In this document: piece after piece, positions 8,040 to 17,248 of the stretch
Position numbering within the stretch: position 1 is the stretch's first letter
Layout: every line of letters begins with the position of its first letter
Virus record (IMG/VR): IMGVR_UViG_2571042870_000012
Length of the DNA: 17,248 bases
Source of the DNA: a virus
Lineage: Duplodnaviria > Heunggongvirae > Uroviricota > Caudoviricetes
Strand: one strand, 5' to 3'
Position numbers and translations under genes: made by a program
Notes under the pieces: model-generated
Database searches by the model: none
Seen by the model: only the letters and a program-made list of their open reading frames with translations
Told to the model about the DNA's origin: nothing

Positions 8040-8246
8040 CTTCATTTTCACTTTTTTAAATCCAACGACAGACGGCTGGCATTTAAGTATTGTGAAATAT
8101 TATCAAATGTAATCATCATTGATTTACAAAAGATACATTTTGCCCCGAAAGGATTCATGTCAGAAACATCAAAAGATGATGTTCTATACTGGGAACCATG
8201 ACAACACGGGCATCTAAAGTGAATATGGTTTGTAATATTGTCTACC

Positions 8247-8459
8247 TCAAAGCGCCACTACATGAACAGCGGCAGGACCTTTAGGTCCGTTCTCAATACC
8301 AAATTCAACTTCCTGATTCTCAGTTAATGTTTTGAAATCGTTGCTCTGAATTGCTGAGAAATGGACAAACACATCTTTGCTGCCATCTTTCGGCGTGATG
8401 AAACCAAAACCTTTTTCAGGGTTAAACCATTTCACTAAACCAGTCATTTTGTTAGACAT
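8247..8459 (-). CDS. cspI: Cold shock protein CspI
   Basis: 70 aa CspA-family protein [45 protein letters not shown]... with RNP1/RNP2 motifs and a long AT-rich 5' leader. Confidence 0.85.
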
Positions 8460-8822
8460 AATTATTACCTTTTGAAGAAATTAGCCCTTGGGCAGAATGG
8501 TCCGAAAAAAAATATCAGAGAGAAAAACCAACAAGGAAATCTCAAGAGGTACAAATAATAAAATTATAACAATGACTGCTTCAGATAAATTTGTAACAAA
8601 CCAGAACACCATTAACGCATGATTAACCACCCATAGCAAGGATTACTTTTGTAAAGAAAAACACAGCAATGAAAGAATAGCTTTATTTATTAATAATAAC
8701 GTGTCATTCTGATTAAGACCTTTTATCTTACCCTTAAGATTTCAGGAATTTTGGCTCATGGAAGAGTCCTTTTTATTTAAATTTTACATTCCGCGATGTA
8801 AATGTTCCGATTTAATATTACC

Positions 8823-10853: not shown

Positions 10854-11131
10854 ATTGTGGTGCTTTTTGTGGGAGTCATCCACTTACGCACTTTGTTTTG
10901 CCATGCCAGCAGTTAGCTTCTGCTGTAAAACTATTCATGCAGCAAACCTGCACTTCACCACAATGGTTAGCATACTTTTCCTGATTAAGATTTTGCCAAA
11001 TATGCTGGCCATTGTTTCATGTATTGGACCTCCTTAATTTTTATTAAAGAAATCCAATATTCACTACTCTGTCCGTATCTCTACTCAGGCATCAGCCTTC
11101 TTCGTTATCGTATACAGACGAGCGATGAATT

Positions 11132-11347
11132 TTAATCAGTAATGATGACATTTGCTGCTGCAGGACCTTTAGCACCACTCTCTATAGAGAAGGTAACCTT
11201 TTGACCTTCAAATAAGGTTCGATAATTATCATTCTGAATCGCAGAAAAATGCACAAACACATCTTTACTACCATCAACAGGAGAAATAAAGCCGAAACCT
11301 TTATCAGCGTTAAACCATTTTACTAAACCAGTCATTTTATTTGACAT
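11132..11347 (-). CDS. cspB: Cold shock protein CspB
   Basis: 71 aa CspA-family protein [53 protein letters not shown]...; ATG at 11345-11347. Confidence 0.85.
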
Positions 11348-11647
11348 TCTACATTCCTTAACTTGAGCCTTTCGGCATAAATGGTTTGCATAACAGAAAC
11401 GACTTCGTACTTAATTGGAGAGACTCAAAGAAGGAATAAGTGAATAACACCTGAAATGAGAACTGCTTTAGTAAACTACTTCGTATATCGTCTGTTCTTC
11501 AAACCGACGCAATCATTAACGCATAGTTGAACATATGAAGCAATGTTTATTTTAGACATCCAGCCATCTTCAACCCCATCAAAAAACTATAGCTTTCTTC
11601 AGGAACGTGTGTATAGTGCGCCAAGTTATCAGTATTAAGGAATTTTT

Positions 11648-14835: not shown

Positions 14836-14991
14836 TTACTCCTCAGGTTCGTAGACTGTGAAGACAGCGACCTCCGTCTGGCCGGTTCGGATTCGTACCT
14901 CGCAGAGGTCTTTCCTCGTTACCAGTGCCGTCACTATGACGGTTAAACAGATGACGATCAGGGCGATTAACATCGCCTTTTGCTGCTTCAT
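14836..14991 (-). CDS. hokD: Hok-family type I toxin (51 aa)
   Basis: Translation MKQQKAMLIALIVICLTVIVTALVTRKDLCEVRIRTGQTEVAVFTVYEPEE; AAGGAG 9 nt upstream of ATG 14989-14991. A GC hairpin (14807-14828) follows the stop. The track ORF extends in frame to an ATG at 15048. Confidence 0.85.
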   Translation of the reverse strand: MKQQKAMLIALIVICLTVIVTALVTRKDLCEVRIRTGQTEVAVFTVYEPEE

Positions 14992-15577
14992 AGCCTGCTT
15001 CTCCTTGCCTTTTGGCACGTAAGAGGCTAACCTAGATTTGCCGTTCATAGATTGAGCCTCAGATTAATGTTAAGCGTCTTGCAGGACGCGTAATGTTAAC
15101 TGGGGCTTTTCTCTATCTGCCTTTGGTGTTCATGCCTGAGACAGATAGCCTCAAGCACCCGCAGCCATTCTACTTAACTCCCGTCACCTGGCCAATATAA
15201 AATCAATCAGAAAGGCGATCCATAAGAACAACAGCAAGACAATAAATTGCCATTACAGCTGCAATAGCCAGCGCACATTTGAGAACCAGCACGACAACCT
15301 CCTGTATTGGACGTACACCAGTCCTGATAAATATGAGGCTCTCTCATCATTGATGAGATACAACTATTGGGTATAGTTTCTGTGATTTTGTTCTGTAGAA
15401 ATGGAACACAACAACCAGTAACCACCAGCGATTCTTTAAATACGCCAAATCCGACGCAAGCTAACCTTCTAGTCCGCTTTGGGCGAAGACCGGACGTTCG
15501 ATAGGTGTGAACTAGTAACTTTAAAAACATTTAATTACCAGTAAAAAAACAAGAATATACTATCACTTTTCCAATTT

Positions 15578-16603
15578 TTAATTACCCTTATCAATTTTAA
15601 GAAATACATTTCCAATCTCATCAGAATAATCCTGTATTATTTTTGAAATGACGGCATGATCAATGGTTGGTTTTAAGAATAAAAGTGTCACAGTAATCTG
15701 CATCAAACTAATAGCAGTAGCATGGGCTGGATCAGCCATTCCTGAATCACTTTGCCCGACCAATAATATATCATCACCAGTTTCACAGAGACCAAGCCTA
15801 TTTCTCATTGCCTTGGAACCGGTGTGTACATTCTGACTCGCCCACTTATAATAAGGGCGCATGTGTTCTAACTGAACATCTTTCTCAATAGCTCCAAACC
15901 CCACTTTATTATGGTTAGGGAAAATATAAGATGCCCACCCATAATTATCTGCATATTTTTTGCCGTATTTTTTTATTAATAGATCAAATTGAACTTTACA
16001 CTCAGCTATTTCTTCAATAGTTGGACCTTTTGCTTCTAACCGGTGCTCGTACTTTTTGTGTTCCAACATTCCAGTATATGAATCAACCACTTCATGGTAG
16101 TAAAAGCGCTCAGCACACTCTTTTCCATGCTTTGCTATAAACATAGCTGTGGCTGCTACCTCATGAAGTGCTCGCCATCTCGCTTGGGCAGCATCTGCAA
16201 ATCCATTCTTTAAGAGACACAAAATTTCGTTGGCGATGTGGCAAGCTCTTGCGTGATGCCGAACGACTAAATCAAAAACCACATCCTCTTCAGAGGCAGC
16301 TTGTGGTCTATAAGAACGATTGAACTCTTCACCGGACTCCGTGCATATCACTATAAGTGTTTCGAGCAAATCAAAAGCCTCTGCCCATCTTGAAATATTT
16401 CTCTCAACAAATTCATCACAAAGAGAACGATGTTCTCTAAGCATTGCATTGGCCGAGCCAATAAGAGATTTTTTAACGACAATGGCTATTTTGGGAATTA
16501 GGTTATTAATTTCTTTTTCGATATCAGCGTCACCAGATAAATCAAGTCTCTCTTTTAAAAGGCTGTCTATGTGCTCAAGCAAAATATTATGAAAAGTATC
16601 CAT
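15578..16603 (-). CDS. Hypothetical protein, AT-rich orphan cargo gene (341 aa from ATG; 345 from an upstream TTG)
   Basis: Long uninterrupted ORF with K/E/I/N-rich, low-GC codon usage unlike the flanking genes. No transmembrane segment or motif I can assign with confidence. Flanked by AT-rich non-coding DNA. Confidence 0.7.
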   Translation of the reverse strand: MDTFHNILLEHIDSLLKERLDLSGDADIEKEINNLIPKIAIVVKKSLIGSANAMLREHRSLCDEFVERNISRWAEAFDLLETLIVICTESGEEFNRSYRPQAASEEDVVFDLVVRHHARACHIANEILCLLKNGFADAAQARWRALHEVAATAMFIAKHGKECAERFYYHEVVDSYTGMLEHKKYEHRLEAKGPTIEEIAECKVQFDLLIKKYGKKYADNYGWASYIFPNHNKVGFGAIEKDVQLEHMRPYYKWASQNVHTGSKAMRNRLGLCETGDDILLVGQSDSGMADPAHATAISLMQITVTLLFLKPTIDHAVISKIIQDYSDEIGNVFLKIDKGN

Positions 16604-16830
16604 ATCATATCTCAATAAGTTTTAAATCCATGTGGCACACCCATAATATAAAAATAAACAGCATGCCAGTCTAAGTCTGGCTATTTGTATATCATATCAC
16701 CTGAAACATTGACAGATGTAACCCACCAAAATATTATCAATGACCACTCTTGGCACAAAGCGAACAACCACGCTAGCTCTACCTTGTGCCATGAAAATGT
16801 CAATGCATATCTGAACTAATGCCCTTTAAT

Positions 16831-17248
16831 CTAGTAACGTCTAAAATACCTAACATTTCCCTGATAAAATGCCATAATGCGCTGCATAACTTCGCTCTTC
16901 CGGCACTCGCGACAGATTATGTTTAGACAACTATCGTAGCGACGTATTTCTCCGTCAGGTAATGACCAGATAAGGTCCGGATCAACCGCAGATGGTTTTT
17001 TCAGCTTTGCCCTTGAGAGCTTTTTACGGGCATTTTGCCAGTCCTTACGCGCCTGTTCAGACGGGAATAACCCGTAACCAGAGTTGTATACATCGCCACT
17101 GGCAACCAGCTCTCTGGCCAGAACGCTCATCAGATATCTTGTTGCCCCAGTTTTAGTTTCCAGTTGTCGTAACGTCTCGCGCCCACTCTGGCGTACGAGT
17201 TCAACAACCTGCCTGGATTTGCCCCTATATTTCCAGACATCTGTTATC
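16831..17248 (-). CDS. Ren-like protein (partial; frame stays open to the window edge)
   Basis: C-terminus ...CLNIICRECRKSEVMQRIMAFYQGNVRYFRRY and internal ...TGAT... resemble lambda Ren as recalled (...FKECRQSAAMKRVLAVYGVKR; ...LTGATV...). The frame has no stop upstream within the window, so the true start is at or beyond 17248. Confidence 0.4.
   Translation of the reverse strand, partial: ITDVWKYRGKSRQVVELVRQSGRETLRQLETKTGATRYLMSVLARELVASGDVYNSGYGLFPSEQARKDWQNARKKLSRAKLKKPSAVDPDLIWSLPDGEIRRYDSCLNIICRECRKSEVMQRIMAFYQGNVRYFRRY

Follow-up and report, generated by a model that had tools for sequence, protein, structure and literature searches.

The window analysed here is a stretch of 17,248 nucleotides (IMG/VR record IMGVR_UViG_2571042870_000012), which was 100% identical to a Qin-like defective prophage of Escherichia coli APEC O78 (NC_020163.1). 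Between a DUF977 family gene and hokD/sok, this prophage carries a gene on the minus strand that encodes a DUF5677 family protein of 341 amino acids (aa) (WP_000379313.1). The open reading frame (ORF) runs from an ATG at 16603 to a stop codon at 15578. An earlier note, made from the sequence alone, had placed an ORF of 341–345 codons here, and its position matched exactly: the 341-aa form is the form annotated in RefSeq, and an alternative in-frame TTG at 16615, four codons upstream of the ATG, gives 345 aa. The ATG start is favoured because the homologues begin with MDT or MET. As the note had stated, the Shine-Dalgarno sequence is weak (only GAGA precedes the gene) and the G + C content is lower than that of the neighbours: 38.5% for the coding sequence and 37.5% for the cassette described below, against 48–51% for the prophage genes in the flanks (50.7% for ydfU/ydfT and 48.3% for the DUF977 gene). 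The ratio of nonsynonymous to synonymous substitution rates (dN/dS) was 0.19 against the Salmonella copy, 0.29 against the Providencia copy and 0.12 against the Klebsiella copy. With the RefSeq annotation, a profile match and homologues in addition, the ORF is clearly a real, intact coding gene under purifying selection. Two of the 73 E. coli copies looked inactivated. In strain GPEC1054 the gene was split by an ISVsa5 insertion, and the copy of ET358 showed a 1-bp length difference with a split annotation.

Positions 15471–16765 of the window share approximately 90% DNA identity with a Salmonella IncFII/Rep3 plasmid, and positions 15470–16740 share approximately 89% with a Providencia integrase island. 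Homology to prophages with other cargos stops at 15497 and resumes at 16744. Because these breakpoints enclose both flanks, the gene moves with approximately 140–160 bp of upstream and approximately 100 bp of downstream DNA. The gene is an intact, horizontally mobile, self-contained single-gene cassette of approximately 1.3 kb, located between two inverted stem-loops. Its low G + C content, its rarity and the presence of the same cassette on a plasmid and an integrase island agree with the foreign origin proposed in the earlier note.

The copies in E. coli, Salmonella, Providencia and Klebsiella all conserve the 5' flank that travels with the gene (16604–16741, minus strand). This flank contains a candidate promoter with a 9 of 12 consensus match (-35 TAGACT at 16673–16668, -10 TATATT at 16650–16645) and a small stem-loop at 16665–16681. 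An exact 10-nt direct repeat, ATATCATATC, occurs at 16602–16611, where it overlaps the start codon, and at 16689–16698, 87 bp upstream. The Salmonella and Providencia cassettes show partial conservation of both copies, and the repeat may be an operator. The best promoter-like site of the region (16709–16737, plus strand; TTGACA-17-TATTAT, 11 of 12) faces away from the gene, in antisense to DUF977; its -35 sequence is not conserved in the Salmonella copy. Conservation with the Salmonella and Providencia cassettes extends to the 3' flank (15496–15577, minus strand), in which neither a convincing terminator nor a stable structure was seen (z-score -0.2). The possibility that the cassette flanks encode an RNA antitoxin or a riboswitch was rejected, as there was no Rfam match and no stable fold.

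At the breakpoints of the slot lie two copies, inverted relative to each other, of a 24-nt stem-loop with the consensus GTCCGCTTTGKGCNARRAGCGGAC. The left boundary stem-loop, GTCCGCTTTGGGCGAAGACCGGAC, occupies 15472–15495 on the plus strand. The right one, a degenerate copy with the sequence GTTCGCTTTGTGCCAAGAGTGGTC, lies at 16742–16765 on the minus strand, where homology to other-cargo prophages resumes (approximately 16744). At the left stem-loop, the shared prophage backbone ends at 15495–15498 and the cassette shared with Salmonella and Providencia ends at 15470/15471. The Salmonella plasmid cassette retains both stem-loops. In other prophages the pair also brackets RelA/SpoT and DUF4209 cargos, single copies flank SMODS and 314-aa ORF cargos, and in K-12 a single copy lies between relB and ydfV. 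The background was 10 near-matches in 1.32 Mb of unrelated loci. The exact pattern was found in 113 IMG/VR contigs, with DUF977 adjoining in 61. At 56 loci a second copy followed 0.3–7 kb further on, and the intervals held at least 15 unrelated cargo families. Some IMG/VR contigs contained 4–6 copies of the stem-loop and neither DUF977 nor hok. The stem-loops could provide portable homology for module exchange, or could be a recombinase site. A limited search of the searchable literature yielded no description of a stem-loop-delimited lambdoid hotspot, and this hotspot is a less expected observation than the cargo gene itself.

The DUF5677 gene was present in 73 of 5,426 complete E. coli genomes, always at 99% identity or more, whereas the adjacent DUF977 gene was present in 3,690 of them (at 80% coverage or more). 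Twelve sampled prophages showed at least nine different contents of the slot: the DUF5677 gene, a RelA/SpoT protein, a SMODS and SLATT pair with a recombinase pseudogene, a DUF4209 protein, QueH, an alpha/beta hydrolase, a 314-aa ORF of unknown function, arrays of small nin-type ORFs and an IS3 element. Some prophages have a HAD-like 214-aa ORF here, and a Klebsiella prophage carries a copy of the DUF5677 gene at the same slot with 77% identity. The synteny comparison thus upheld the variable cargo slot with swapping contents that the earlier note had proposed. Only the example taken from K-12 was misplaced: there relBE stands in place of the sequence from hok to the left boundary hairpin, which puts it on the hok side of the hairpin, beside the cargo interval and outside it. 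In E. coli GPEC606 the slot (locus L021, 2967–3992) holds a 341-aa RelA/SpoT-domain protein that matched the PADLOC candidate PDC-S33 (E 5e-119) and may be a defence gene of the toxic small alarmone synthetase type. The slot of EC21Z-014 (L149, 1443–3424) contains a SMODS nucleotidyltransferase and SLATT (a CBASS-like pair) together with a frameshifted recombinase pseudogene, which could be related to cargo exchange. A cargo hotspot therefore follows the DUF977 gene in Qin/Rac-type lambdoid prophages, and the DUF5677 gene shows the deviant G + C content, patchy presence and alternative contents at the same site that mark prophage cargo ("moron") genes.

Two descriptions of the protein had to be revised. 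The gene had been called an orphan, whereas a word-indexed search returned 553 homologues at E<1e-5; and it had been said to have no assignable domain, whereas residues 112–274 matched Pfam DUF5677 (PF18928) with an E value of 5.8e-34 and 118 bits against a gathering cutoff of 27.1, which makes it a full member. All 80 of 80 diverse relatives matched the same profile. The protein also matched PHROG 27456 (E 4e-210). DUF5677 and PHROG 27456 are both catalogued families without an assigned function, so that membership names the protein and explains nothing about it, and in the literature on DUF5677, PF18928, the protein accession and DUF977 no functional description was found.

Homologues with 59–89% identity were found in Salmonella, Pectobacterium, Providencia, Klebsiella, Vibrio, Sulfurovum, Nitrospirae and Desulfuromonas; the E. 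coli protein is 60% identical to its relatives in Sulfurovum, Nitrospirae and Desulfuromonas. An exhaustive HMMER search yielded 3,116 representatives of 50%-identity clusters at E<=1e-3. Relatives are encoded in at least 442 of 185,579 species-representative genomes, many of them Chloroflexota and one an archaeon, and the family as a whole ranges through bacteria and some archaea, from Enterobacteria to Chloroflexota and haloarchaeal plasmids. It was further found in 36 IMG/VR viral contigs, on 13 true plasmids and in 1 of 50,697 deposited phage genomes (Bacillus phage SPR). The sole E. coli "plasmid" match, NZ_CP141089.1, is a 4.9-Mb record filed in PLSDB that is evidently a chromosome. In a large subfamily, with many relatives of approximately 420 aa, the N-terminus is extended by 70–100 residues. 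Rare relatives have an N-terminal NTPase_1 P-loop domain, or 300–500 extra residues without a Pfam match.

An AlphaFold2 model built with 60 homologues was well predicted (mean predicted local distance difference test (pLDDT) 91.4, predicted template modelling score (pTM) 0.87). The modelled protein is all-helical, with four long helices (28–72, 74–104, 108–132 and 136–184) followed by shorter ones, and the protein was predicted to be cytoplasmic and all-alpha. Near-invariant residues are G134, D137, A139, R142, W143, R144, L146, H147, E148, E240, Y252, H260, G283, S285 and G288, which give the signature R142-W-R144-x-L-H147-E148 and, further on, G283-x-S285-x2-G288; conservation peaks at residues 121–160, 241–260 and 281–300. 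In the model, the conserved polar residues D137, R142, R144, H147 and E148 cluster where the fourth long helix of a four-helix bundle begins, and E240, Y252, H260 and S285 are located in two C-terminal segments. Residues 1–60 are the least conserved and evolve fastest, with a dN/dS of 0.38–0.51 against 0.07–0.25 in the core. The product is, as modelled, a soluble, all-helical, enzyme-like protein. No PDB chain was matched by sequence in single-sequence or profile searches.

Other members of the family have very different surroundings. The Salmonella plasmid copy lies directly after vapBC. The Providencia rettgeri island (L025, 6406–17026) consists of an integrase, the DUF5677 gene, a dCTP deaminase, three small ORFs and a 2,147-aa NACHT-like protein, and the dCTP deaminase next to DUF5677 matched a defence model (E 1e-168). 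In Kushneria the gene comes after that of an FRG protein matching PDC-S15 and is near yefM-yoeB, the Bacillus copies are two genes upstream of aimR in SPbeta-type prophages, and the Photobacterium copy is a lone chromosomal insertion. In Enterobacter hormaechei, a P4-like island carries the gene at its distal end, followed by a gene for a 777-aa protein whose C-terminus has a SEC-C motif (L007-L010, 9194–11533). This 777-aa protein gave weak tail matches to PADLOC E2-like models only. The neighbouring ORFs in 80 species (554 in total) fell into 526 clusters of which the largest had 4 members, so there is no conserved partner gene. Close copies, too, have different neighbours. The gene is therefore a single-gene module, as had been suggested, and the conserved adjacent antitoxin of a type II toxin-antitoxin system was absent from the 80 loci.

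The 148 immediate neighbours included matches to PD-Lambda-1 (2e-140), a CBASS cyclase (3e-134), PsyrA (2e-123) and viperin (5e-105), and also to AriA, SngC, BrxH, Mrr and FRG proteins. PARIS is among the defence systems listed beside DUF5677 homologues, and ORFs 6.5–10 kb away included restriction-modification, BREX, AbiEii and MADS genes. The DUF5677 family is associated with defence islands. The DUF5677 domain was likewise enriched beside serine recombinases that mark defence loci.

A precedent for a lone prophage gene of this kind is HepS of the Salmonella prophage Gifsy-1 (PMC13043305), a single HEPN tRNA nuclease that causes abortive infection and stays inactive unless a phage tail-tip protein triggers it. 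Tha of S. aureus prophages appears to be a similar case. Like HepS, the DUF5677 gene is a single-gene prophage module without a partner, located between replication genes and late regulators, and in Gifsy-1 a DUF977 gene also comes after the replication genes. The two proteins, compared by description, differ in size and motif: HepS has fewer than 250 aa and a canonical R100-N-x3-H105, whereas the protein studied here has 341 aa and an R-W-R-x-L-H-E within a long helix. STM2620 in the LT2 Gifsy-1 record was considered as HepS and rejected; it is DUF1367, and no suitable ORF was found there.

We tentatively favour, at somewhat less than an even chance, the interpretation that the cassette gene encodes a stand-alone anti-phage effector of the abortive-infection type. 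Its activity would, by analogy with HepS, probably be that of a nuclease, for which a HEPN-like RNase is the first candidate. It would be expressed in the lysogen from its own promoter, and the protein might be kept inactive until an infecting phage triggers it; the approximately 60 fast-evolving N-terminal residues are a candidate sensing or regulatory part. A defence function is also suggested by the other occupants of the slot that are of the defence or toxin-antitoxin type. Of the anti-phage or abortive-infection module put forward in the earlier note, the mobile foreign cargo in a variable slot is strongly supported; the proposed function is suggested by association, and PADLOC, HEPN and Abi_2 models were unmatched.

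Several results weigh against this interpretation. The inner and outer zones of neighbours were equally rich in defence genes (159 and 135 PADLOC models matched); this places DUF5677 genes in defence islands, yet makes the outer zone unusable as a negative control, and the counts of defence neighbours stand without a genome-wide control. Defence and anti-defence genes are found in the same kind of genomic context. No phenotype is known for any DUF5677 member, and the one DUF5677 ORF assayed, in E. faecalis with six phages, was absent from the five candidates that showed activity. The PADLOC check on the protein that had been suggested was negative: none of the 5,027 models of PADLOC-DB v2.0.0, a database from 2023, matched at E<=1. 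Abi_2, AbiD, AbiF and the other named Abi proteins gave no Pfam or PADLOC match at E<=1, an NCBIfam search was negative, and a Pfam scan at E<=10, run on the 80 diverse relatives, gave nothing beyond DUF5677 and noise, with no HEPN, Abi or HD links. The Foldseek check, likewise suggested earlier, started from a well-predicted model and found nothing below E 0.1 in PDB or BFVD.

The HEPN assignment itself meets difficulties. R142-x4-H147 fits the HEPN Rx4-6H pattern, with R142 in 79 and H147 in 78 of the 80 members, and E89, which belongs to the second long helix, is conserved as an acidic residue (E in 66 and D in 10 of the 80), in a context that is not Ex3[KR]. In HEPN proteins the motif closes helix 3 or falls in the loop that leads to helix 4, and the Arg is followed by N, D or H (Anantharaman et al., PMC3710099), whereas here the motif lies 6–11 residues into helix 136–184 and an invariant Trp comes after R142. 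Neither the query nor the 80 relatives matched a HEPN Pfam family at E<=10. Because the motif is inside the fourth helix, the Trp is invariant and a HEPN Pfam match is lacking, HEPN membership is a lead and not a result. Comparison with minimal HEPN proteins (AF_0298, 2hsb; TT1696, 1ufb; sacsin HEPN, 3o10) gave scores barely above those of generic four-helix bundles, with approximately 160 further residues of the DUF5677 protein without a counterpart and a non-canonical motif position and post-Arg residue. The R-x6-H sequence RHHARACH (R115-x6-H122), which the earlier note had mentioned as too weak to call a HEPN motif, was rejected, as H122 is conserved in just 5 of the 80 family members.

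Two other explanations of the gene appear unlikely to us, to about the same degree. In the first, the gene serves the mobile element itself, either as a counter-defence enzyme that aids the establishment of prophages, plasmids and satellites in new cells or as an addiction toxin with a small unannotated RNA or peptide antitoxin in the flanks. The distribution of the copies over a prophage, a plasmid (right after vapBC), a P4-like island and SPbeta-type phages would suit such a role, but many copies are lone chromosomal ones without nearby mobile-element genes (Photobacterium, Kushneria, Desulfuromonas and many Chloroflexota). The gene adjoins hok/sok in the APEC O78 prophage, its conserved 5' and 3' flanks travel with it, and a direct repeat covers the start codon with a second copy 87 bp upstream, all of which would be in keeping with an addiction module; against this, the flanks match no Rfam family and form no stable RNA structure, and a conserved small ORF or partner gene was not found. 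Occurrence in a single one of the 50,697 phage genomes also differs from what is typical of the anti-defence genes carried by lytic phages.

In the second, the protein is an accessory enzyme or binding protein outside conflict (stress-related, metabolic or nucleic-acid-modifying) that hitchhikes in variable regions. QueH, the alpha/beta hydrolase and the HAD-like 214-aa ORF, which share the slot, are not obviously defensive, the many conserved polar residues would suit almost any enzyme, and the unmatched defence models and the negative Enterococcus assay point the same way. This is countered by the sporadic, patchy distribution, in which distant hosts carry near-identical copies (the E. coli protein shares 60% identity with those of Sulfurovum, Nitrospirae and Desulfuromonas), the absence of a conserved metabolic neighbourhood in 80 species and the repeated adjacency of defence systems to DUF5677 genes.

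A more far-reaching proposal, to which we give little credence, combines two claims: that DUF5677 proteins are new stand-alone immune effectors with a non-HEPN active site (RWRxLHE, E240, Y252 and H260), and that the paired 24-nt stem-loops form an undescribed cassette-exchange platform through which single-gene defence cargos move from one lambdoid prophage, plasmid or integrative island to another. That the gene is an ordinary lytic-cycle nin-region gene of the prophage lineage (replication, recombination or late-gene accessory) is close to refuted: it is oriented as the early-right operon, between the replication genes and the Q antiterminator, and occupies the same place in a Klebsiella prophage, but it is missing from 98% of the prophages that share the backbone, occurs on plasmids, islands and bare chromosomes, has a foreign G + C content and resides in a defective prophage (protease and tail-fibre pseudogenes, IS2).

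The backbone on either side of the slot was also characterised. Upstream of the cassette lies the DUF977 family gene (16831–17213, minus strand), whose 5' end has been removed by IS2 at approximately 17214. It had been described as Ren-like; it does occupy the position of lambda Ren, but the family is DUF977 and only a 20-residue C-terminal motif is shared with Ren. The end of IS2 (17214–17248) stands between the cargo region and the prophage's replication genes and early promoter. Because IS2 cuts off this early promoter, expression of the cargo gene must use its own promoter or an outward promoter of IS2. In locus L001, IS2 spans 17826–19054.

On the other side, hokD (14836–14991) and the sok/hok-leader RNA region (14986–15160; Rfam RF01794), both on the minus strand and identified by annotation and Rfam, constitute a backbone toxin-antitoxin module adjoining the slot (14836–15160). 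Between sok and the left hairpin lies an unannotated backbone segment (15161–15471); the wider segment 15050–15500 was present at 80% coverage or more in 1,474 E. coli genomes. A 107-aa Cys-rich ORF in this region (15207–15530, minus strand) was rejected as a gene, as it has a stop codon in one copy (L113) and a broken frame in L021; 12 substitutions in it led to 7 amino-acid changes. Elsewhere in the prophage, cspA-type thermoregulator leaders (Rfam RF01766) were found at 8220–8605 and 11116–11508 (minus strand), upstream of the cold-shock genes cspI and cspB.

Prophage defence hotspots and single-protein abortive-infection effectors are already known, and the DUF5677 gene is a new candidate of this kind. 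As in the P2/P4 defence hotspots (PMC9122126), unrelated defence cargos replace one another at a fixed position of a temperate element, and one DUF5677 copy, that of Enterobacter, is itself at the distal end of a P4-like island. The hotspot described here differs in being located in Qin/Rac-type lambdoid prophages after DUF977 and in being delimited by inverted 24-nt stem-loops able to travel with the cargo. The relBE and hokD/sok modules of K-12 Qin are also accessory toxin modules in the same prophage region; they are two-component toxin-antitoxin systems, whereas the DUF5677 gene has no partner. Whatever the function of DUF5677, the stem-loop pair provides a sequence handle for harvesting the cargo of the lambdoid hotspot, comparable to the discovery of new systems through the P2/P4 hotspots. 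The DUF5677 family has no solved relative, and it offers a compact and testable set of near-invariant residues. If the protein is indeed a defence effector, the family, with more than 3,000 clusters at 50% identity, would be a large addition to the single-protein immune systems.

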